From the NCBI GenBank assembly GCA_016699085.1, contig CP064958.1, positions 67,785 through 131,784 of the forward strand: 64,000 nt of DNA. The letters run 5' to 3'. The position numbers were made by a program, and so were the translations under genes. Position 1 is the stretch's first letter, and each line of letters starts with the position of its first letter. This stretch comes from Candidatus Nomurabacteria bacterium. Its GTDB lineage: Bacteria; Patescibacteriota; Minisyncoccia; Phycocordibacterales; UBA9973. The notes beneath the pieces were generated by a model. The model was not told where the DNA came from. It searched no databases and saw only the letters and a list, made by a program, of their open reading frames with translations. This document shows, in pieces, positions 3,917 through 58,422 of this stretch.

Positions 3917-6900
3917 ATGTCGAAACCATTTACTCATCTCCATACCCATTCTCACTACTCACTCCTAGATGGGCTATCGAAGATAGATGATTTGGTCAAC
4001 CGCGCAAAAGAACATGGTATGGAAGCACTCGCACTTACCGATCATGGCAACATGTACGGTGCTATCGAATTCTACAAAGCCTGCAAAAAAGAAAATATCA
4101 AACCTATCATCGGCGTCGAAGCCTATGTCGCCGAGCGAACGAGGTTTGATAAAGATCCTAACATTGATGCCAAACGGTATCATCTAACTTTGCTTGCCCG
4201 AAACGAAACTGGTTACAAAAATCTCATGCGACTCGTCTCGAAAGCTAACATCGAAGGCTACTACTACAAGCCACGCATGGATCATGATCTACTCAAAGAA
4301 CATGCTTCCGGACTTATATGCCTCACAGGATGCCCTGCCAGTCGTTTCATTCACCATGTTAAAAATAATCAGATTGATGAAGCCAGGAAGCTCCTTCATT
4401 TCTACATCGATATATTTGGGAAAGAGCATGTGTTCGTCGAAGTCATGCATCATGATGATGTTGATTGGTATACACCACTGTTGCCTACTATCAAACAAAT
4501 CGCACAAGACCTCGATCTACCGATCGTCGGTACGTGGGATTCGCACTACCTCCACAAAGATGATGCGGAAGCACAAGATACACTCCTAGCAATTAACACT
4601 GGCTCAGATGTGGGAAGTAATAAGATATCAATGAAGTCTGGCGACTATTCATTTATTAGTTCAGACGAAGCCTATAAAATATTCCACGACATGCCCGAAG
4701 CCTGTGCGAATACACAAAAAGTTGTGGATCTCGTTTCTATAGAGCTCTCACTCGGAAACTGGTATTTCCCAAACTACGAAATCCCTGAGGGAACCACGTA
4801 TGACAGCGAACTGTCTAAATTCACCTACCTCGGGATGGAGACTCGCAATATCGAGAAGACACCAGAGCGACTCGAACGCATCGCGTATGAACTCGACGTT
4901 ATCAAGAATAAAGGCTACGCGCCCTACTTCCTCGTCGTTGCCGATCTGTTGAAATTCGCCCGTGAGCACAATATCGTCACCACAACGAGAGGCTCGGCCG
5001 CAGGATCAATGGTCTCGTACCTTAACTACATCACGACGGTTGATCCGATCGAATACAATTTGCCATTTGAAAGATTCTTGAACCCATACCGTCCATCGGC
5101 ACCTGATATCGATATGGATATAGCTGACAACAGACGCGATGAAATGATCGATTATGCCAAATTAAAATATGGCGCAGATAAAGTTGCTCAGATCGGAACA
5201 TTCGGTACCATGATGGCACGTGGTTCAGTGCGTGACGTAGCACGTGCACTCGGCTATCCATATAGCATCGGCGATCGTCTCTCAAAACTCATACCGATGG
5301 GTAGCCAAGGTTTCCCTATGACGATCGATCATGCCATGGAACTCGTACCAGAACTTCAAACAGCGTATGACAACGAGCGTGAGACAAAAGAAATTATTGA
5401 TCTCGCAAAAAAAATGGAAGGCTGTGCACGACATATCTCTGTGCACGCAGCAGGCGTCGTTATCGCACCTTCGGCTATCGAAGATTTTACCCCGATACAG
5501 TTTGACCCCAAAGGCGGCAAAATCATCACACAGTACGACATGTACACGATCGAAGAAGCGGGACTCCTCAAGCTCGACTTTCTCGGTATCAGAAACTTAG
5601 CCATCTTAGGAGATGCCATCGAACGCATCATGAAAATCAGAGGTATAAAGATCGATCTCGACGATCTGCCAAAGCAAGACAAAAAAACATTTGAAATGCT
5701 TGCCCGTGGTGAAACTGTTGGCGTCTTCCAGCTCGGCAATGACGGCATGACAAAAGCCGTCAAGAAACTAGAACCAACGACAATCGATGACTTGAATGTC
5801 ATGGTCGCACTCTATCGTCCAGGACCAATGGCGACGATCGATGAATACATTGCGAGAAAGCATGGCAAGAATAAGACGATTTACTATCATCCGAAAATGG
5901 AAAAGTTTTTGCACAAAAGTTTTGGACTCTTGGTCTATCAAGATGATCTCCTCTACACGGCGATCGAACTCGCTGGCTATGACTGGGAATCAGTTGATAA
6001 ATTCCGCAAAGCAGTCGGTAAAAAAATCCCAGAAGAAATGGCAAAGCAACATACCAAATTCGTCGATGGCTGCCAAAAATATTCTGCCATGTCAAAAAAA
6101 GATGCCGAGAAAATCTGGGAGCTCTTTGAACCATTCCAAGGCTACGGATTCAACAAAGCTCATGCCGCAAGTTACGGCAAAGTCGCCTACCAAACAGCGT
6201 ATTTGAAAGCTAACTTCCCTGCAGAATACATGAGTGCAGTATTGACTGCCGAGTCTGATGACCTCGAGCGAATCGCAGAAGTGATCGCTGAGTGTAAACG
6301 CATGGGCTTTGTTGTACTGCCACCTGATATTAATGAGAGCTTCTCTGACTTTACTGTCGTACTCGATGAACAAGGATCGGTAACAAACACAATTCGCTTC
6401 GGTCTTCGCAGTATTAAAAATTTCGGTGAAGAGATCGGTAAGGCAATTATTGGCGAGCGCAAAGCGCATGGAGCATTTGCATCACTCGTGAATTTCCTCG
6501 ATCGAGTCCATCACAAGAACCTGAACAAGAAATCACTTGAGGCACTCGTCATGTGCGGTGCGATGGATACGCTCGGTGAGCGCGGTACACTCATGCGGAA
6601 CATGGAAGTGTTGCTCGAATACAACAAGGAAAATGAAAAAATGCGTGGACAAGATTCATTGTTCGGAGGACTAACGAGCTATGATGGCGGTAGTCTTGAA
6701 CTAGTTCCCGGTGACACTGCGACACAAGCAGAAAAATTGCTTTGGGAGAAAGAACTGCTCGGTCTCTATGTCTCAGGTCATCCACTCGAACGCTGTCGCG
6801 CACAAATCGAGCAAAGCGGTATGCATATAGGCAAAATTAGAACTGATATTAAAAATGGCATGCCGGTTATTTTGGGCGCGATGATTACTGCTATCAAAAC

Positions 6901-7102
6901 AGTTACGACCAAAAATAATGACACGATGCTTTTTGTAACCCTCACTGACTTTGAAGGATCAATGGAGGCCGTCGTGTTTTCAAAAACGTATGCACAGCAC
7001 CGAGACTTATTTGTGATCGATACCTGCGTCGCCATCAAGGGCCGCGTGTCTATCAGAAATGATGAGAAGAGTATCATCATCGAAGGTATAAAAAAAATAT
7101 AA
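3917..7102 (+). CDS. dnaE: DNA polymerase III alpha subunit.
   Basis: N-terminal PHP motif 'FTHLHTHSHYSLLDG' and polymerase core motifs throughout. The start is probably the second Met (MSKPF...). Confidence 0.9.
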   Translation: MSKPFTHLHTHSHYSLLDGLSKIDDLVNRAKEHGMEALALTDHGNMYGAIEFYKACKKENIKPIIGVEAYVAERTRFDKDPNIDAKRYHLTLLARNETGYKNLMRLVSKANIEGYYYKPRMDHDLLKEHASGLICLTGCPASRFIHHVKNNQIDEARKLLHFYIDIFGKEHVFVEVMHHDDVDWYTPLLPTIKQIAQDLDLPIVGTWDSHYLHKDDAEAQDTLLAINTGSDVGSNKISMKSGDYSFISSDEAYKIFHDMPEACANTQKVVDLVSIELSLGNWYFPNYEIPEGTTYDSELSKFTYLGMETRNIEKTPERLERIAYELDVIKNKGYAPYFLVVADLLKFAREHNIVTTTRGSAAGSMVSYLNYITTVDPIEYNLPFERFLNPYRPSAPDIDMDIADNRRDEMIDYAKLKYGADKVAQIGTFGTMMARGSVRDVARALGYPYSIGDRLSKLIPMGSQGFPMTIDHAMELVPELQTAYDNERETKEIIDLAKKMEGCARHISVHAAGVVIAPSAIEDFTPIQFDPKGGKIITQYDMYTIEEAGLLKLDFLGIRNLAILGDAIERIMKIRGIKIDLDDLPKQDKKTFEMLARGETVGVFQLGNDGMTKAVKKLEPTTIDDLNVMVALYRPGPMATIDEYIARKHGKNKTIYYHPKMEKFLHKSFGLLVYQDDLLYTAIELAGYDWESVDKFRKAVGKKIPEEMAKQHTKFVDGCQKYSAMSKKDAEKIWELFEPFQGYGFNKAHAASYGKVAYQTAYLKANFPAEYMSAVLTAESDDLERIAEVIAECKRMGFVVLPPDINESFSDFTVVLDEQGSVTNTIRFGLRSIKNFGEEIGKAIIGERKAHGAFASLVNFLDRVHHKNLNKKSLEALVMCGAMDTLGERGTLMRNMEVLLEYNKENEKMRGQDSLFGGLTSYDGGSLELVPGDTATQAEKLLWEKELLGLYVSGHPLERCRAQIEQSGMHIGKIRTDIKNGMPVILGAMITAIKTVTTKNNDTMLFVTLTDFEGSMEAVVFSKTYAQHRDLFVIDTCVAIKGRVSIRNDEKSIIIEGIKKI

Positions 7103-7136: not shown

Positions 7137-7472
7137 TTATTGGAAACTTCCGGAGACCTGAATACTCTCCTGAATTGAGAGGTACATTTGTACTCTACTT
7201 TTTGTATCTGACTGTGAAGTATACTGCTCAACGAACTCTAATCTTTTCCTGAAACGAGCCATCGAACGACTCGAAATAATGAGGTCGAGTAACTCTTCGC
7301 ATAAATCATCAATCTCTTTTTGATTGAGATCTGGTCGACATTCATTTTCATTCTGAATCTTTACCAGATCTCTGATTTCCTGTTTTTTCTGTCTGATTTT
7401 CATTGTAAGTGATGGAAATAAGAAAAAATAAAGCTTCACAGGAAAGTAGATAATCAATGGAAGTTTTTTCAT
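7137..7472 (-). CDS. Hypothetical protein (111 aa).
   Basis: ORF only. Confidence 0.35.
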   Translation of the reverse strand: MKKLPLIIYFPVKLYFFLFPSLTMKIRQKKQEIRDLVKIQNENECRPDLNQKEIDDLCEELLDLIISSRSMARFRKRLEFVEQYTSQSDTKSRVQMYLSIQESIQVSGSFQ

Positions 7473-7546
7473 AACGTATGGGTTTGGTTAAGGAAAATTA
7501 AATAAATTATACGCTATTTTACAGAAAATGCAAGCTACAACTGAAT

Positions 7547-9316
7547 TTGTCATATGGTATTATTGGGCTTATGCCTGAAGAAAAATTAAACCAAATCCGT
7601 CACACCCTTGCCCATCTCTTGGCTGCATCAATACGAACACTCTATCCCAATGCACAAAATTCCATTGGCCCTGCAATAGAAAATGGCTTCTATCAAGATT
7701 TCGATTTGCCTGAGACAATATCTGAAAAAGACTTCCCTGTGATCGAAGCAAAGATGAACGAACTCTTGATGACATGGAAAGAATTCACCAAGCGAGATGT
7801 AACACCTGACGAAGCCAAAAAAGAATTTGCATGGAATAAGTACAAAGTCGAACTCATAGAAGAATTCTCACAAAAAGGCGACCAGCTAACATTCTATACA
7901 GCTGGCGAATTTGTTGATCTCTGTCGCGGCGGCCATGTTGAACATCCACATACTGATATCGTGCCAGGTTCATGGAAGCTCGATCGAGTTGCGGGAGCGT
8001 ATTGGCGTGGCGATGAGAAAAATAAAATGCTTACTCGCATTTATGGACTTGCATTTGAATCAAAAGAAAAACTCGATGGTTATATCGCCATGCAAGAAGA
8101 AGCAAAGAAACGCGACCATCGTAAACTAGGTAAAGAACTCGGATTATTTTTATTCTCTGATCTTGTTGGACCAGGATTGCCATTATGGACACCCAAAGGC
8201 ACACTGTTGCGCGAGCTTCTCAATGACTATGTCTGGAGTCTTCGAAAAAAGTATGGGTACGAAAAAGTAACAATCCCGCACATTACGAAAAAAGAATTGT
8301 ATGAGACCTCTGGGCATTGGGCAAAATATGCTGATGATCTTTTTAAAATTCATACACGGGAAAATAAACTCTTTGCTATGAAGCCCATGAACTGCCCTCA
8401 TCACACGCAAATATTTGATTCTGAACCAAGAAGCTATCGTGATATGCCGCAGCGATATTGCGAAACAACAATGGTATATCGAGATGAACAATCAGGCGAA
8501 CTATCAGGTCTGTCGAGAGTGATATCGATTACCCAAGATGATGCTCACGTTTTTTGCCGTGAAAGCCAGATCGAGGAAGAATCATTAAAGATTTGGGATA
8601 TTATTGAAAAATTCTATGGTGCATTCGGCTTTGAGCTCACACCACGACTATCTCGACATGATCCTGATAATTTTGAAAAATATCTAGGCACAAAAGAAAC
8701 GTGGGAAAAAGCTGAAGGAGCGCTCAAAGATCTCATCGAGAAGAAAAATGCTGTCGCGATAGATGGCAAAGGAGAAGCAGCATTTTATGGACCAAAAATA
8801 GATTTCCTCGGCAAAGATTCACTTGGGCGAGAACACCAAGTGGGTACAATCCAGATAGATTTCGTCCAACCAAAAAACTTCGGTCTCACGTTTACAAATG
8901 AAAAAGGTGAGAAAGAAAATGTCGTCATGATTCACTGTGCAATCATGGGCTCTATCGAGCGATTTATGATGATCATGATCGAACATCTCGGCGGATCATT
9001 CCCAACCTGGCTCTCACCAGTACAAGTCGCAATTATTCCCGTTCGCGAAAATCATATAGAGTATGCAAAGAAAGTTGAAACAGATCTTGAAGAATCCGGC
9101 ATTCGGGCAAAAATGTATGATGCTAATGACAGCCTCGGCAAACGCATCCATGCTGCAAAAGGACAGAAAATCCCGTACGTCATTGTGATCGGTGATAAAG
9201 AAATGTCTTCAGGAAACCTCACCATCGAAAAGCGTGACGGAACAAAAGATGAGCAAACACTTGCAATCTTTATTGAAATGCTTAATGGAGAGGTCAAAAA
9301 CCGTTCATTAAATTAG
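7547..9316 (+). CDS. thrS: Threonyl-tRNA synthetase lacking the N-terminal TGS domain.
   Basis: 'HTLAHLLA' editing-domain His pair, 'RDHRKLGKELGLF', class-II motifs, 'FYGPKIDF', and a C-terminal anticodon-binding domain. Confidence 0.9.
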   Translation: MSYGIIGLMPEEKLNQIRHTLAHLLAASIRTLYPNAQNSIGPAIENGFYQDFDLPETISEKDFPVIEAKMNELLMTWKEFTKRDVTPDEAKKEFAWNKYKVELIEEFSQKGDQLTFYTAGEFVDLCRGGHVEHPHTDIVPGSWKLDRVAGAYWRGDEKNKMLTRIYGLAFESKEKLDGYIAMQEEAKKRDHRKLGKELGLFLFSDLVGPGLPLWTPKGTLLRELLNDYVWSLRKKYGYEKVTIPHITKKELYETSGHWAKYADDLFKIHTRENKLFAMKPMNCPHHTQIFDSEPRSYRDMPQRYCETTMVYRDEQSGELSGLSRVISITQDDAHVFCRESQIEEESLKIWDIIEKFYGAFGFELTPRLSRHDPDNFEKYLGTKETWEKAEGALKDLIEKKNAVAIDGKGEAAFYGPKIDFLGKDSLGREHQVGTIQIDFVQPKNFGLTFTNEKGEKENVVMIHCAIMGSIERFMMIMIEHLGGSFPTWLSPVQVAIIPVRENHIEYAKKVETDLEESGIRAKMYDANDSLGKRIHAAKGQKIPYVIVIGDKEMSSGNLTIEKRDGTKDEQTLAIFIEMLNGEVKNRSLN

Positions 9317-9567: not shown

Positions 9568-9570
9568 TAA

Positions 9571-9596
9571 AAACCCCTGCTATGCAGGGGTTTTTG
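9571..9596. terminator. Rho-independent terminator, bidirectional.
   Basis: CCCCTGC-tat-GCAGGGG followed by TTTTT. It is flanked by convergent genes. Confidence 0.75.
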
Positions 9597-26201: not shown

Positions 26202-26256
26202 GCCTACATTGTACCCTATATAGAAATATATTCTAGAGATGCATGTGCAAAAAATA

Positions 26257-26278
26257 AAACCCACATATGTGGGTTTTT
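26257..26278 (-). terminator. Rho-independent terminator for the 26280..27170 gene.
   Basis: AAAACCCACATATGTGGGTTTT palindrome followed by a T-run on the minus strand. Confidence 0.6.
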
Positions 26279-27170: not shown

Positions 27171-27231
27171 AACAATGAAATTTGAGATTACTATACAGTA
27201 TTTCTATAGAAAATCAAGTTCATCTACTAAA

Positions 27232-27259
27232 CAAAAAAGACCTTACATAGGTCATTTTT
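27232..27259 (-). terminator. Terminator for the 27269..28366 gene.
   Basis: GACCT-tacat-AGGTC followed by TTTTTT on the minus strand. Confidence 0.5.
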
Positions 27260-27268
27260 GTTTGTATT

Positions 27269-28366
27269 TTATTCGTCAATTGTGAACGTCTTCATTTCCC
27301 CACCAGGGATTGTATACTCAAGTGTCTTATCATCAATCCATTTTGGCTTATGCCAAAATGTCGTATCACCCGTTCGATCAAGAAGAATTTTTTCTTTCGT
27401 TATTACATTGTAGACATAAAAAGATACCTGCATATTTTTAGATGTCCATTCTGCTTGATATTCGGCATCGAATTCTTTTGTGCCTGTCCAGGGCGGGCCG
27501 TCATCATAGGTTACCCACGCATTTTCAATATTAAATGGATCACCTTCCATGGTTCCTGTTGGAGCATCAAATAATTGCCAGTTACCTGAAGAAACATCAA
27601 CTTTCACAAATGCTAGCGTATCAGCACCGTCAAATAATCGAAACCAATAGTATTGACTATCTTTTGTCCAACCTATGAGACTAATGTCGCCACTAGCGCC
27701 CGGATATTTTGCAAATATATCTTGCATTGGAATAGCAACAACATCTTCACCGGAATCAATTGATTTGATAATGAATGAATAATCTTCGCTGCCAACATAT
27801 CCTTTTATTAAATTAATGTATTTTTCGTGTGGATCGATATCAAAAGAAGTTTGATATATTAAAGTTGGTTTATTACTTTTTATATCAGTAAATGTAAAGT
27901 TTGATTCTGGATTTTTATCTATATATGAGTATTTCCAAACTTCAAATCTGTAATCTGGTAAGATTTGAAAGTTGCTGTAATCAAACCCCCAATATCTCAA
28001 AACATACATTGCGCAATCCCTTATTTTATAGACCTCTTGATTTGGAGGAACATTGTCAATTACAAATGAATTAATTTGTGTATTTTGACTATCAGTTATT
28101 TTTACTTCCATGGGGATAAGTGGTCGATCAAGACCATTCACCGCTTTTTCTCCATCTCGGGGGAAATTAATTTGTAATCCATCTGACTGACATTTTTCTA
28201 TATTATTTGTTGCCATACTATCCCATACATCAGTAGGTGCCGGGATTACATCTTTTAGAAATTTAAAGTAGTAGAGAATAAATATAGTCAAAAAACCCAC
28301 AATGATTATGAGTACAGCATGGAATATCTTTCGATGTGAATTAGAAGTCATACGAGAGTATTCCAT
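27269..28366 (-). CDS. Membrane-anchored extracytoplasmic protein (365 aa).
   Basis: N-terminal transmembrane segment. Overlaps the upstream giant gene by 26 nt, consistent with an operon. Confidence 0.45.
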   Translation of the reverse strand: MEYSRMTSNSHRKIFHAVLIIIVGFLTIFILYYFKFLKDVIPAPTDVWDSMATNNIEKCQSDGLQINFPRDGEKAVNGLDRPLIPMEVKITDSQNTQINSFVIDNVPPNQEVYKIRDCAMYVLRYWGFDYSNFQILPDYRFEVWKYSYIDKNPESNFTFTDIKSNKPTLIYQTSFDIDPHEKYINLIKGYVGSEDYSFIIKSIDSGEDVVAIPMQDIFAKYPGASGDISLIGWTKDSQYYWFRLFDGADTLAFVKVDVSSGNWQLFDAPTGTMEGDPFNIENAWVTYDDGPPWTGTKEFDAEYQAEWTSKNMQVSFYVYNVITKEKILLDRTGDTTFWHKPKWIDDKTLEYTIPGGEMKTFTIDE

Positions 28367-31298
28367 TTGATGTTAAGAGAGCTAGTATAGACATACCGCT
28401 CTTATCATACACCTCTTCTGGCAAATTTGGCTTTGTTACAACTATATGAGTTAGATTCGTTGTTGCATTATACGTCGCAACAACTTTAAAAGCATCTTTA
28501 ACCTTTATCGTTTGAGTCAGCTTTTTATATGATCCATCATTGGCCAGATTCCATTTATACTCAATCGTTGTATGTGGAAATTTAATTTTTGGATTAGCAT
28601 TATAGCTAATATCTTTAACTCTTAGATTAATCGGAGAAATACCAGGGACAAAAGGTGCAGCATCGCTAACTAGATTGAGCTTTGTTGTATTACCTGATAC
28701 ATCAGCAATCGTATAGGTAAGATTTTCCTTCGTTGTTGAAGTTGGACTTTCTTCATCTACTCCAATAATACTTAGATCTTTATTGTCTTGATCAAATGCG
28801 ATAAATACTTCGGGAGCTGTAATATCAGGAACATTTACTTGCTCTAATATAGTTTCACCCGTACCATTTATCGTGTCATATGTCGCAATAAACGAATCAA
28901 CTTGCCCATCTGTAATACTACCTGTAGATTGACTTTGCGAATCATTACCAGATCCATCAAAAGAAGTAGCCGCAATAGTGTACGTACCTGCACCTGTGCC
29001 CGTAACCTTGAGAGTATAGTCCCCTACACTAGGTGTTGGAATGTACGCTATTTTCCAAGTATGTTCAGCTCCATTACCATCAGGATCATCATACATTTCA
29101 TTAACATAACTGGCATTGGGAATATCAGCAAAAGTCTCATCAGTAGATGGATCATAGCCAAGTTTGTTACCTGCTGGATCTGTTATAACAATATCGGCAG
29201 GAGATGCAACATTAAATGCAAGGTACACAGTTGCAACTCCAGTCGGATTTGGTTTGAAAAGTCTTAGTCCTGCAAATTGCTTACTGTATGCGCGGACATG
29301 CTCAGTAGTATTTGTTTCTGATTCATTGAGGGTTTTAGTGTTGTAAAATGCCGGATCTTTTACTTCATAATTATTGGATGAGAGCTTATTTGCAAGAACT
29401 ATAAAATGTGTGTGGGTTTTAGTATTTTTTATATACTGCACTTTTGCAATAACTGGCCGGTTGAGATCTAAATAACTATTGGCAAGACTGTAATTAGTTT
29501 CCGAGAAATCTCCAGAGTTTGCATCATAGGCTAATTGATTATCGGTGTATTGTGCTACTTTATACCAACTCATAGCACCACCAGGATAATAGCCCATATT
29601 GTTTTTTAACCAAGAATTTAATGTTAGTGGCGTTACATCATTTGCTTGTATATTTGTGATTCCATAATACCTAGCTACCATTACAGCAGAGACCATAGCG
29701 CAACCACAACTTGCAATTGTTATCCCACAACCAGTATTCCCAATACCATACGCATAATCTTGATTAAACCATGAAGAAGTTTCAGCAATACCGGGATAAG
29801 GTGATTGATTTTGTGTATACAGTGGTACATTTTGAATAACAAAATCAATATTATTTGTTATCCCAAATTCACTCCATGGGGATTTGTTATTTTGTGCATC
29901 CACTGCCCTGGCACGCCAGTGATACGAATCATCAGTATTCCCCTCACTCTTTATGCTAACTACTTCACCATCATTTACAGAGCCTGATATTAGTAAATTA
30001 GAACCGTCAAAAACTACATCATTAGGTTTAATTTCAACCTCCATAGAAGCCGTTCCTCCATCTGGCACATGCAACGTTCCTTTGAGGATAATTGTATCAC
30101 CCGTATTAAGCCCCCCTTCTGCAAGTGAGTAGCTACCATCAGATTTGAATTGAGTAAGTAAATCAATACTGGGGCCACTAGTGCCAGCAAATGGATCAGT
30201 AGATAACCATGGAGAAAATGAAGAAAGATATTGAATGTCCGCAGTATCTCCTTGTCCTGTAGGATTCACCAATTCATCATAAGGGCCACTTGGATCACCC
30301 CACCAATTATTAGTTAAGTCAGGTATAGTACCACCTATGATAAAAGCAACAGTATTCCCAGAAAAAGAACTTTGGTGGACACTAAATACCCCATGCTCTG
30401 TTCCCCGCATACCAATTGCATTATTAAGTATTTGGGAATTCGTCATTGTTAATACTTCATCATCGGGGCCCAATAGTTTGAAACCACCCTCTGAAGATAC
30501 ATTGTCAACTGCAATTTCAGAAAAATTTTTTATCACAACTGAATCAAGTGTAATATTTGTTCCTAATCCATAATATCGAATACCAGCTTTCCCAGTATCA
30601 AAAATACAATTTGTGCAACTAAGAGACGAATCGTAGGCAACAATAGCCGCATAGGTAGTGGTGTTTATTTCAGTAAAATCAGTTAAATAAACTTGAGAAG
30701 TGAAGCCACTAAAAATACCCAGCACACTATCAGCTATATCAATGTTCGTTGCTGTTATTGTTGCATGATCTGCATATATATCTCTATGATTGTGATTAAA
30801 GGAAATATGATCAATAGAGGCCGTAACACTATGGTAATAAAGCGCATTTACTGCATATGAAAAATCAACAAAAGCAAGTGCTGATGTTGCATTAAAAATT
30901 TTGATTCCTCCCCAGTCATCATATCCAGGAGATGTCAAACTACCATCATTATTAGAATCCCCGCTAACACTATCATCCAGATACGAAGTAAATATAATTG
31001 GATTTGAAGCCTCCCCGACCGCATGCAATGTGCCTTTGACAGAAAGTAGAGGTGGATCTTCATCATCGGGATCATCGGGGCCATAACTTTTAATTACAAC
31101 TCCGGGTTGGATAGTCAATATGACACCTAATGCAACATCTATCGGAGAAGTTATAATATAAGGGCTACCTCCGACATCCCATGTTGTATTGCTTGTAATA
31201 TTATTCGTAATAATAGTACTTGCATGAAGTTTGTTGTTTGGAGCAAGTACAATGATGGTAATAAGTACCATCACAATAAAAATATATTGCTTGTACAT
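28341..31298 (-). CDS. Large cell-surface protein (about 985 aa) with a signal peptide, a beta-helix-like region, a C39-like cysteine peptidase domain and C-terminal Ig-like domains. The true start is the Met at 31298.
   Basis: 'GNTGCGITIASCGCAMVSAVMVARYYG' (Cys box), then 'THTHFIVL' (His), then 'KDPA' (Asp), matching the peptidase C39/C39-like signature. The ORF-track N-terminal extension is a translated palindrome. Confidence 0.65.
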   Translation of the reverse strand: MYKQYIFIVMVLITIIVLAPNNKLHASTIITNNITSNTTWDVGGSPYIITSPIDVALGVILTIQPGVVIKSYGPDDPDDEDPPLLSVKGTLHAVGEASNPIIFTSYLDDSVSGDSNNDGSLTSPGYDDWGGIKIFNATSALAFVDFSYAVNALYYHSVTASIDHISFNHNHRDIYADHATITATNIDIADSVLGIFSGFTSQVYLTDFTEINTTTYAAIVAYDSSLSCTNCIFDTGKAGIRYYGLGTNITLDSVVIKNFSEIAVDNVSSEGGFKLLGPDDEVLTMTNSQILNNAIGMRGTEHGVFSVHQSSFSGNTVAFIIGGTIPDLTNNWWGDPSGPYDELVNPTGQGDTADIQYLSSFSPWLSTDPFAGTSGPSIDLLTQFKSDGSYSLAEGGLNTGDTIILKGTLHVPDGGTASMEVEIKPNDVVFDGSNLLISGSVNDGEVVSIKSEGNTDDSYHWRARAVDAQNNKSPWSEFGITNNIDFVIQNVPLYTQNQSPYPGIAETSSWFNQDYAYGIGNTGCGITIASCGCAMVSAVMVARYYGITNIQANDVTPLTLNSWLKNNMGYYPGGAMSWYKVAQYTDNQLAYDANSGDFSETNYSLANSYLDLNRPVIAKVQYIKNTKTHTHFIVLANKLSSNNYEVKDPAFYNTKTLNESETNTTEHVRAYSKQFAGLRLFKPNPTGVATVYLAFNVASPADIVITDPAGNKLGYDPSTDETFADIPNASYVNEMYDDPDGNGAEHTWKIAYIPTPSVGDYTLKVTGTGAGTYTIAATSFDGSGNDSQSQSTGSITDGQVDSFIATYDTINGTGETILEQVNVPDITAPEVFIAFDQDNKDLSIIGVDEESPTSTTKENLTYTIADVSGNTTKLNLVSDAAPFVPGISPINLRVKDISYNANPKIKFPHTTIEYKWNLANDGSYKKLTQTIKVKDAFKVVATYNATTNLTHIVVTKPNLPEEVYDKSGMSILALLTSNGILSYDF

Positions 31299-31396
31299 AT
31301 AGTATAAGTATATGCTTTGACTTTTTACTCGCAATATTGTAAAAATTTTTCTGTGGAAAACTTTTATATAAAAAACTTTTATGATATAAGGTTTTT

Positions 31397-31450
31397 TCAA
31401 ACTAAAATAATATATATACACGGCCGTGTATATATATTATTTTAGTTTGA
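31397..31450. promoter_or_regulatory. 54-bp perfect palindrome (putative operator) upstream of the surface-protein gene. It overlaps the stop codon of the PaaX-like gene.
   Basis: TCAAACTAAAATAATATATATACACGG|CCGTGTATATATATTATTTTAGTTTGA. Confidence 0.6.
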
Positions 31451-31982
31451 AAAATTGTTTTAGATTTTTATCGTCGCTTATAAAATCAACAATCATATAC
31501 CTGACATTTTTACCAAAGACATAGTGAGTTTTCAAAAGCTCTATATAATCCTCGCACGCAAAAGGATACACCCATACACTCTGCTGCAGTTGTATAAAAC
31601 CAATTTCTTTTAATTCATGTCTTAGTAGATCTCTCTTGGTCCGATTGCGCTCAAATATATCAAAGCAAACAACGCGCCATTTACCATCCCAATTTTTATT
31701 TTGTATATATCTATATTTCTTTAATTTCCAAAGAAATATCTTACCCATTTCTGATAGTTGATATGTGTTACTTTTATTAATTCTTTCTAGATACCCCTTA
31801 TTGAGTAGGATTTCTATTTTTTTATTTACATACTGTCGTTTACTGTTGCGAAATAATTTACTCCTATCTATCATTTCATTTTTTTCAAAAAGCATATCCA
31901 AAGTAATCGAACCAAGTTCTGAAACAGCAAACAAAAGGTTCCCAGTTACTTTACCTAATCGTAATAATTTATTATTTATCAT
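31437..31982 (-). CDS. PaaX-like winged-helix transcriptional regulator. The start is probably the Met at 31982.
   Basis: N-terminal wHTH. C-terminal 'WDGKWRVVCFDIFERNRTKRDLLRHELKEIGFIQLQQSVWVYP' is the PaaX_C-like signature. Confidence 0.55.
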   Translation of the reverse strand: MINNKLLRLGKVTGNLLFAVSELGSITLDMLFEKNEMIDRSKLFRNSKRQYVNKKIEILLNKGYLERINKSNTYQLSEMGKIFLWKLKKYRYIQNKNWDGKWRVVCFDIFERNRTKRDLLRHELKEIGFIQLQQSVWVYPFACEDYIELLKTHYVFGKNVRYMIVDFISDDKNLKQFFKLK

Positions 31983-31995
31983 ATATACCTTGTTA

Positions 31996-32027
31996 TAATT
32001 TATATACACGACCGTGTATATAAATTA
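31996..32027. promoter_or_regulatory. Second copy of the palindrome core (15-bp arms, one substitution at the centre), 14 bp upstream of the regulator start codon.
   Basis: TAATTTATATACACG-ac-CGTGTATATAAATTA. Confidence 0.55.
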
Positions 32028-32082
32028 TCTAGACAATATAATGTTAATAATACATAACGGTACAGAATTTTATACGAATCGT

Positions 32083-39064: not shown

Positions 39065-39079
39065 TATCATGTAGACACT

Positions 39080-39106
39080 AAAAATCCCGGAATTCCGGGA
39101 TTTTTA
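39080..39106 (+). terminator. Rho-independent terminator.
   Basis: Perfect palindrome AAAATCCCGGAATTCCGGGATTTTT. Confidence 0.7.
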
Positions 39107-39272
39107 ATTGCGAGATATTTTTTTTTCGGTATTCATTGTGCAAAATTCGAACCTTTTTTGAAAGCAATCCTGATGAAGAAATCTGAAAAATGCGGACTCG
39201 GTTTTGCGAAACAATTTTGCGGAAGGAATGCAGGGCGGGGATTTCGGAATTTTGGCGGGTAAGATTAGAAGA

Positions 39273-58389: not shown

Positions 58390-58422
58390 TAAAAAACCAC
58401 ATATGAATGTGGTTTTTCTTTT
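58390..58422. terminator. Rho-independent terminator, bidirectional.
   Basis: ACCACAT-atga-ATGTGGT followed by TTTTT. Confidence 0.65.

Follow-up and report, generated by a model that had tools for sequence, protein, structure and literature searches.

Matched palindromes on both sides of a PaaX-like regulator gene in Candidatus Nomurabacteria and other Patescibacteria suggest a self-contained, autoregulated cassette

In a stretch of 64,000 nucleotides from a Candidatus Nomurabacteria genome (contig CP064958.1; hereafter the window), the gene of a short PaaX-like regulator lies between two closely similar palindromes, one just before its start codon and the other across its stop codon, the latter also standing ahead of two co-directional genes of which the first encodes a large secreted surface protein. 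This arrangement raises the question of what the two palindromes are for, and in particular whether the second one serves to place the surface-protein genes under the regulator, as a preliminary description made from the bare sequence had proposed in addition to autoregulation. The explanation that we favour, with a confidence somewhat better than even, is a self-contained autoregulated cassette, in which a short PaaX-type dimer would read a private dyad of ~36 bp that is present both before and after its own gene.

The 3' palindrome had been described as a perfect inverted repeat of 54 bp at 31397-31450. Its location, its perfection and its overlap with the stop codon were retained, and its length was corrected to 62 bp, made up of two arms of 31 nt (31393-31423 and 31424-31454) that are 100% complementary and have no spacer between them. 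It spans the stop codon (31437-31439) and the final six codons of the regulator gene, one of its arms coding for the last residues and the stop. The copy ahead of the gene, placed earlier at 31996-32027 and 14 bp from the start, is present at slightly different limits (Table 1), with its edge 12-13 nt ahead of the ATG at 31982, and because of this short distance it likely overlaps the promoter or the 5' end of the gene. Its two arms of 16 nt, 100% complementary around a 2-nt centre, match the segment 31407-31440 of the 3' palindrome, the part common to both sites, at 31 of 34 positions, and the outer arms of the 3' palindrome (31393-31406 and 31441-31454) are an extension peculiar to the lineage of the window. 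One difference between the two copies is mirrored, with T...A in the 5' site and A...T in the 3' site, so that symmetry is kept in each. A search of the 64-kb window for the 22-nt core with up to three mismatches returned these two places and no further copies, and zero matches were obtained in 100 dinucleotide-preserving shuffles. Single-strand folding yielded -24.5 kcal/mol (z = -13.0) for the 3' site and -9.9 kcal/mol (z = -7.1) for the 5' site. The only matches to known RNA families were to models of eukaryotic miRNA hairpins and fell below threshold, an outcome to be expected of any long hairpin, and no relevant tandem repeats were detected.

As the palindromes recur in independent assemblies of relatives (NCBI, JGI and Logan), they are not an assembly artefact. 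Both sites of the window are conserved in relatives with ~93% DNA identity: the 5' site is kept in L001 and L089-L093 except for the centre dinucleotide and one arm base, and all 62 bp of the 3' palindrome stay perfect in L089 by means of a mirrored A>G / T>C change. Perfect palindromes of this kind are a systematic cause of breaks in short-read assemblies, which give a false impression of missing genes; contigs stop inside them or exactly at their centre (the ends of L001, at 773, of L092 and of L093), and a scaffolder laid gaps of 100 Ns across them in L099 (1811-1910 and 5293-5392). Awareness of them improves annotation, as it explains both such broken assemblies and the spurious ORF (open reading frame) extensions of the window, where the 'MYINY...' peptide, rightly suspected in the preliminary description, and a second one, 'MYIYY...', are mechanical ORFs that start inside the palindromes. 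The centre bases were seen to switch between GT and AC, which are reverse complements, while the arms stayed unchanged (window 32011-32012, L001 171-172, and L100 3869-3870 compared with L101 3704-3705). The switch occurs among relatives 93-99% identical, and family-wide the centre shows all four R-Y forms. It could result from the flipping of a hairpin loop, or else from C>T transitions that arose repeatedly at CGGCCG, a pattern expected under cytosine methylation of the site; as two independent transitions explain the change equally well, the switch was rejected as proof of a hairpin flip-flop.

To place this arrangement in a wider frame, 80 loci of ~8 kb containing homologues of the regulator were fetched from different genomes (593 kb in all); all the homologues sampled belong to Patescibacteria. 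These sequences contain 123 palindromes with arms of at least 12 nt, of which 61 lie within 250 bp of a homologue gene, a zone that makes up ~14% of the sequence. In many loci one palindrome stands right before the start codon and matches another right after the stop, the copies agreeing within a locus and differing between loci. Flanks of sufficient length were available for 77 loci. In 48 of these (62%) the 5' flank matched the 3' flank at 15 or more of 16 nt, compared with 6 of 231 (3%) controls in which the 5' flank of one locus was paired with the 3' flank of another; at a threshold of at least 14 of 16 nt the figures are 88% and 11%, respectively. Among the ~40 clear matched pairs, the median distance from the dyad centre to the gene is 36.5 bp on the start-codon side and 39.5 bp on the stop-codon side, and the pairs have a median spacing of 631 bp; the paired repeats, 380-800 bp apart, enclose the gene itself. 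Dyad symmetry and identity between the 5' and 3' copies extend ~14-16 nt outwards in both directions from a 6-bp centre and then drop to background together, which sets the functional unit at ~34-38 bp and makes the 62 bp of the window an outlier. The centre is CGRYCG or CTATAG, and the arms follow a pattern with a purine beside the centre, A-rich positions 6-9, and variable positions 2-5 and 10-11. The class of the centre was uninformative as a marker of protein relatedness, agreeing with that of the nearest relative in 23 of 34 cases where ~19 were expected by chance.

The gene with its matched palindrome bracket is therefore a hallmark of this family in Patescibacteria. The family is a large one: a profile search of 1.84 billion representatives retrieved 1,216 clusters at 50% identity that reach E <= 1e-30, with members nearly all of 170-215 aa. 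It is also uncharacterised, in that neither the family nor its bracket was found described in the full-text literature on PaaX-like, Cas2-like or PaaX_M proteins and palindromes in Patescibacteria.

The protein encoded between the palindromes is called by NCBI and JGI alike with 181 aa and a start at ATG 31982. Its earlier identification as a PaaX-like winged helix-turn-helix (wHTH) regulator agrees with its match to Pfam PF20803 (PaaX_M, the Cas2-like central domain of PaaX; E 8e-21, 74 bits against a cut-off of 24) and with a Foldseek search, in which the best match of its AlphaFold2 model (pLDDT 76.5) was E. coli PaaX (PDB 8a39, 180 aligned columns), followed by Rv0674 and Cas2 structures, several of the latter with a Foldseek probability of ~1.0. 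The model consists of a winged helix followed by a ferredoxin-like domain, with predicted helices at 13-23, 28-33 and 42-61 and a predicted beta hairpin at 65-76. The family profile matches PaaX residues 57-114 (E 0.0023), and alignment by sequence of the Cas2-like half to solved structures provided nothing useful. No Pfam match to PaaX_C was found in the protein, which ends at residue 181, and its score against the PaaX equivalog TIGR02277 is 32 bits, for a cut-off of 264.55. As it has two of the three PaaX domains, without the ligand-sensing one and without a link to paa genes, the regulator is related to PaaX without being its orthologue.

Neither is it the Cas2 of a CRISPR system. It shares with Cas2 and VapD a C-terminal Cas2 ferredoxin-like fold, an acidic residue at the end of the first strand of this domain, where an FD pair is invariant in the family, and an association with palindromic repeats. 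However, it scores below the cut-offs of the Cas2 models (18.9 against 23.8 for PF09827 and 19.4 against 24.5 for TIGR01573), it is fused to a winged helix, no cas1 was found among the neighbour genes examined, and the repeats here enclose the gene itself. Pfam, NCBIfam and PADLOC returned only PaaX_M and weak Cas2 matches, with no transposase or recombinase domain; identity as a defence system was set aside, PADLOC yielding only the weak Cas2 matches, and so was a phage or plasmid origin, since homologues were found neither among IMG/VR viral contigs nor among PLSDB plasmids and no PHROGs family matched the regulator.

That the two dyads are the cognate sites of the protein encoded between them is very likely, as judged from sequence comparison, because a matched pair with a sequence private to the locus is found at these positions in homologue loci across Patescibacteria. 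Paralogues in one metagenome-assembled genome or contig carry different palindromes (L028 and L058, on the same contig; L038 and L068; L013, L017 and L074). Moreover, half-site similarity correlates with winged-helix identity when Cas2-like identity is controlled (partial r 0.15, permutation p 0.018, 496 locus pairs), and the reverse test, with Cas2-like identity as the variable and winged-helix identity controlled, gave r 0.00 and p 0.49. The N-terminal domain diverges faster, with a mean identity of 31% in the winged-helix half compared with 54% in the Cas2-like half. The proposal of two dyad sites for one regulator is thus supported, as predicted sites, both by the family-wide pairs and by the way in which site similarity follows winged-helix divergence.

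A mechanism can be proposed on this basis. Dimerisation through the Cas2-like domain would set two winged helices about three helical turns apart, and one dimer may then read one dyad of ~34-38 bp, in the way in which E. coli PaaX reads TGATTC-N27-GAATCA, an operator of 39 bp and thus close in size to the unit found here (PMC9493321). Probably located over the promoter or 5' end of the gene, the 5' site would confer negative autoregulation, a prediction already made in the preliminary description that fits the position of the site in the window and in the family and also the fact that E. coli PaaX represses its own promoter (PMC9493321). The site past the stop may cooperate with the 5' site by looping of ~590 bp, or it may act as a protein-reinforced barrier, and both sites could also be bidirectional intrinsic terminators, leaving the cassette transcriptionally insulated from its neighbours. 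What is shown is the architecture with its statistics, its specificity to each locus and its independence from the neighbours, together with the fold; binding, autoregulation, looping and termination are what we infer.

The likeness to PaaX of E. coli and Pseudomonas extends to the order of domains, an N-terminal winged helix and then a Cas2-like central domain, and to the long dyad operator. On the other hand, the regulator is without PaaX_C, hence without known phenylacetyl-CoA sensing, and falls far below the TIGR02277 cut-off. There are no paa genes either among its window neighbours, which are Cdd1/TfoX_C, DoxX and the C39-like surface protein, or among the 25 most frequent of the 76 Pfam families in the neighbourhood of its homologues, all of them housekeeping. 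The sites also differ: here they are continuous perfect palindromes on both sides of the gene, whereas PaaX has two short half-sites; specificity here varies by paralogue, and the sampled family is confined to Patescibacteria.

The main alternative for the window, which is not mutually exclusive with the self-contained cassette and which we regard as doubtful, assigns autoregulation to the 5' site and makes the 3' site an additional operator, meant to bring the surface-protein operon (28341-31298 and 27269-28366) under the control of the regulator. Its favourable points are local. Regulator and operon are adjacent and co-directional, the 3' site stands 95 bp ahead of the start codon of the operon, and the stretch between them is almost invariant in L089-L091, including the segment 31307-31334 with the hexamers TTGCGA-16-TATACT, ~60 bp downstream of the 3' palindrome and the only promoter-like match found for the surface gene. 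In Campbellbacteria-like strains, too, the homologue heads strain-variable genes downstream of rpsG. Across the family, however, the 3' site is present whatever follows: the next gene is convergent in 18 and co-directional in 21 of the loci with a clear pair (36 and 42, respectively, over all homologue loci). As in nearly half of the cases it lies between two stop codons, the 3' site cannot in general be the operator of a downstream promoter. Neither are the genes that follow related to one another. Clustering by sequence divides the 154 genes directly adjacent to the homologues at the 80 loci into 116 groups, and the 59 neighbours of palindrome-bearing loci belong to 76 Pfam families that are mostly housekeeping, SecA, UvrD, KsgA, topoisomerase, AlaRS, GatB, IMP dehydrogenase and ribosomal protein S7 among them. 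In the window itself, the centre of the 3' dyad is ~90 bp upstream of the predicted -35 of the surface gene, which is too far and makes simple occlusion of that promoter unlikely, and the boundaries of the strain-variable island that contains both genes do not coincide with the palindromes, a fact that counts equally against a mobile element delimited by them.

The 3' site is consequently a constant feature of the cassette and not an operator built for the surface-protein operon, and this part of the preliminary description was not sustained. In the self-contained cassette, the 3' site of the window would lie upstream of the operon by chance and might influence it, this not being the reason for the site. 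A local effect of the regulator on the operon is possible, because both share one block that the close relative L094 lacks.

Another explanation takes the palindromes as structural hairpins only, bidirectional terminators or stabilisers of mRNA ends that no protein recognises, their copies being alike through local duplication and gene conversion. Family sites do resemble terminators in anatomy, with an inner 7 nt of 48% GC on average and outer arms of 18%. The GC-richer stem is preceded by an A-rich arm and followed by a T-rich one, the left outer arm being rich in A in 52 sites and in T in 12. Mirrored, compensatory differences occur as well. The ordinary terminators of the window are A-tract / GC-stem / T-tract hairpins, apparently bidirectional (26256-26277, 39077-39108, 9569-9595 and 58392-58417), and the first two of these are likewise loop-less perfect or near-perfect palindromes. 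The bracket sites share the order of A-tract, GC-richer stem and T-tract with bidirectional intrinsic terminators, but differ from them in their long, AT-rich, loop-less stems and in the presence of matching copies on both sides of one gene; a terminator scan of the window called neither of its two sites, which are AT-rich. Moreover, this explanation would leave unaccounted for the identity of copies in ~60-88% of 77 independent loci together with their divergence between loci, the tracking of the DNA-binding domain by site similarity and the restriction of the centre to CGRYCG or CTATAG, and we consider it very improbable.

Several observations go beyond what a plain operator explains and weigh against the self-contained cassette. 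Differences are mirrored at 21 of the 48 variable positions among the four half-sites of a locus, each site being symmetric while the two sites differ; a dimer on duplex DNA does not require this, and such differences point to selection for intrastrand pairing (hairpin or cruciform) or to a symmetrising process, for instance template switching in quasi-palindromes. The perfect 62-bp palindrome is far longer than an operator needs. In L011 and L015 the bracket is kept around proteins with only the Cas2-like domain, the winged helix being missing. A metagenome scan for the window core detected identical 34-bp solo copies on four contigs with no homologue within 3-4 kb. It also detected two copies that enclose a HicA toxin gene together with two UPF0150-type (HicB-like) genes, PaaX_M being absent from the interval (L083 6890-6911 and 8214-8235, the same region being present at L084 2103-2124); these copies have the core of the window, TATATACACGATCGTGTATATA, extended by cactaccc/gggtagtg. 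Finally, a 101-bp segment with a 56-bp palindrome (centre ACGACCGT) and AATTAA on both sides is present in L103 (1816-1916) and L100 (359-459) and cleanly absent from L102 (~1016) and L101 (~259), the flanks being otherwise identical and the strains sharing an identical S7 protein. The difference arose either by insertion, with duplication of a 6-bp target, or by slippage between direct repeats, with deletion of the segment. The solo copies, the bracketed toxin gene and the presence/absence case suggest DNA elements with a life of their own. In addition, a regulator that controls only itself is of no obvious benefit to the cell, and TATAAT-like hexamers are similarly frequent to the right of the dyad in 5' sites (28 of 37) and 3' sites (22 of 37), so promoter overlap of the 5' site is not demonstrated by them.

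These observations could be accommodated if the palindromes were the ends or recognition hairpins of a mobile element that is mobilised or processed via the Cas2-like domain, in a system of the REP/RAYT (REPIN) type or of cassettes. RAYT (TnpA-REP) genes are single genes flanked by two copies of a clade-specific palindromic REP, and REP repeats also occur solo in intergenic DNA and have a terminator-like anatomy, all of which has its likeness here. In addition to the mirrored differences with the intrastrand pairing that they imply, the solo copies, the bracket around the HicA gene and the 101-bp segment, this alternative gains from the presence of several paralogues per genome, each with its private site, from the Cas2-like domain with its invariant FD being the better conserved half, and from the location of the cassettes among unrelated housekeeping genes. 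One of these cassettes (L052), between rpsG and fusA, holds a 235-aa ORF together with the regulator. L011, likewise in favour, carries five palindrome copies and two truncated gene copies.

A number of facts nevertheless make a mobile element unlikely. The protein is without a known transposase or recombinase domain, differing in this from RAYT proteins, which are HUH/Y1 (IS200/IS605-like) transposases, and no recombinase gene recurs among the 154 neighbours of the homologues. Copy number is low, with two copies in the 64-kb window compared with the tens to hundreds of intergenic REPs per genome, and among the 8-kb loci only L011, L050 and L052 have copies beyond the bracket. The gene keeps a stable synteny in some lineages (L014/L017; L026/L030/L058), and searches of IMG/VR and PLSDB yielded no homologues. 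Evidence of mobility is limited to the single 101-bp case, for which a slippage deletion between the 6-bp direct repeats serves equally well. No empty site for the whole cassette was found: no gene flanking the solo sites (contigs L082 and L085-L087) matched a gene at cassette position in the 80 loci, and L099, which seemed to retain one palindrome without the regulator gene, was discarded as an empty site because this appearance comes from Ns that the scaffolder had inserted right at the 3' palindrome.

A more specific version of this idea, to which we also attach little weight, is a Patescibacteria counterpart of REP/RAYT or of MITE (miniature inverted-repeat transposable element) systems, in which the wHTH/Cas2-like protein would recognise its private hairpin palindrome, perhaps nick its CGRYCG or CTATAG centre, and spread, maintain or symmetrise the copies. 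It would explain the mirrored substitutions, the over-long palindromes, the solo copies and the toxin-antitoxin bracket, and the 101-bp polymorphism. Integron attC sites and the pdif modules of Acinetobacter (XerC/D) offer another comparison, as short gene modules between perfect or imperfect palindromes with a 6-bp centre, and brackets with other cargo are found here too, namely the toxin-antitoxin genes of L083 and the extra ORF of L052. In contrast to those systems, there is no associated tyrosine recombinase gene, the sites track one protein family, and their arms vary within one genome, which would be intolerable for a single host recombinase.

Some details of the loci just named were also recorded. 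In L011, the five copies of one palindrome (AAATTTCACGATCGTGAAATTT and variants) stand at successive gene boundaries (1759, 2575, 3904, 4291 and 4754), and the two genes of 107 aa encode only the Cas2-like half; L015 has a similar form of 109 aa. Next to the HicA bracket of L083 there is a second two-gene pair that resembles a toxin-antitoxin pair by eye only. In L052, a further near-perfect palindrome of 61 bp (5863-5923; 28-nt arms, AT-rich), with no sequence relation to the bracket sites, is located shortly before fusA. Past the regulator, the rpsG-fusA region consists of strain-variable genes split by a repeated segment of ~72 bp with a different palindrome, GAAATTTTGC-n3-GCAAAATTTC (L100 4661-4735 and 6152-6209; L101 4496-4570 and 5312-5383; L052 5757-5779), a layout that looks like one of exchangeable cassettes.

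If the sites are cognate operators, each locus is a matched pair of protein and DNA site, and the hundreds of them would constitute a natural data set for the reading of DNA by winged helices, as well as an initial way into the study of how transcription is controlled in Patescibacteria, which are not culturable alone. Private specificities in one genome imply selection against cross-talk between regulators, and could provide useful orthogonal parts for synthetic biology. If instead the DNA elements were mobile, or hairpins processed by the Cas2-like domain, they would represent a new partnership between repeat and protein with a bearing on the origin of Cas2 and of palindromic CRISPR repeats; a counterpart of REP/RAYT or MITE systems, in particular, would be a free-standing relative of Cas2 acting on palindromic repeats outside CRISPR.

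The features of the window are collected in Table 1.

Table 1. Coordinates of the bracketed regulator gene and of the features around it in the window
Feature	Position	Strand	Description
3' bracket site	31393..31454		perfect 62-bp palindrome, centre CGGCCG
5' bracket site	31995..32028		34-bp palindrome, 16+2+16, centre CGACCG on + strand
PaaX-like regulator gene	31437..31982	-	181 aa; NCBI QQR50388.1, Candidatus Nomurabacteria
Promoter-like hexamers TTGCGA-16-TATACT	31307..31334	-	consensus scan only; just upstream of surface-protein start
Secreted 985-aa protein gene	28341..31298	-	Peptidase_C39_2-like domain; start ATG 31298; extension to 31421 spurious
365-aa gene	27269..28366	-	no family match; overlaps end of 985-aa gene; last gene of block
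Bidirectional terminator-like hairpin	27229..27263		closes block; in window and L089, absent from L094
Strain-variable block	27220..32082		4.86 kb: bracketed regulator, 985-aa gene, 365-aa gene, terminator

The regulator is the first gene of the strain-variable block, whose GC content is 0.34-0.36 compared with ~0.40 around it. The regulator, both palindromes and the surface-protein genes are shared by L089-L093, the 365-aa protein being 91% identical to its L089 homologue. L094 lacks the stretch from just after the Cdd1 stop (32082) to ~27220 and has an unrelated 418-aa gene there instead, with flanking proteins 96-100% identical to those of the window, and L096-L098 have an AAA_15 ATPase gene at the place of the block. 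No repeats of at least 12 of 14 nt, direct or inverted, link the two block boundaries. The terminator expected at about 27232-27259 was found as a hairpin of slightly wider limits, and the proposed start of the surface gene coincides with the equivalent start called in L089. The region downstream of the Cdd1/TfoX_C gene appears as a strain-variable hot spot (window 27220-32082; L094 5277-6700; L096 3406-3781), in which the AAA_15 (OLD/Gabija-like) ATPase gene of L096-L098 is preceded by a 24-bp near-palindrome of its own. In L089 the 985-aa gene corresponds to two ORFs (5685-6992 and 7154-8641; 435 and 495 aa) with ~160 bp between them, so that the gene is either interrupted there or variable in its middle part.

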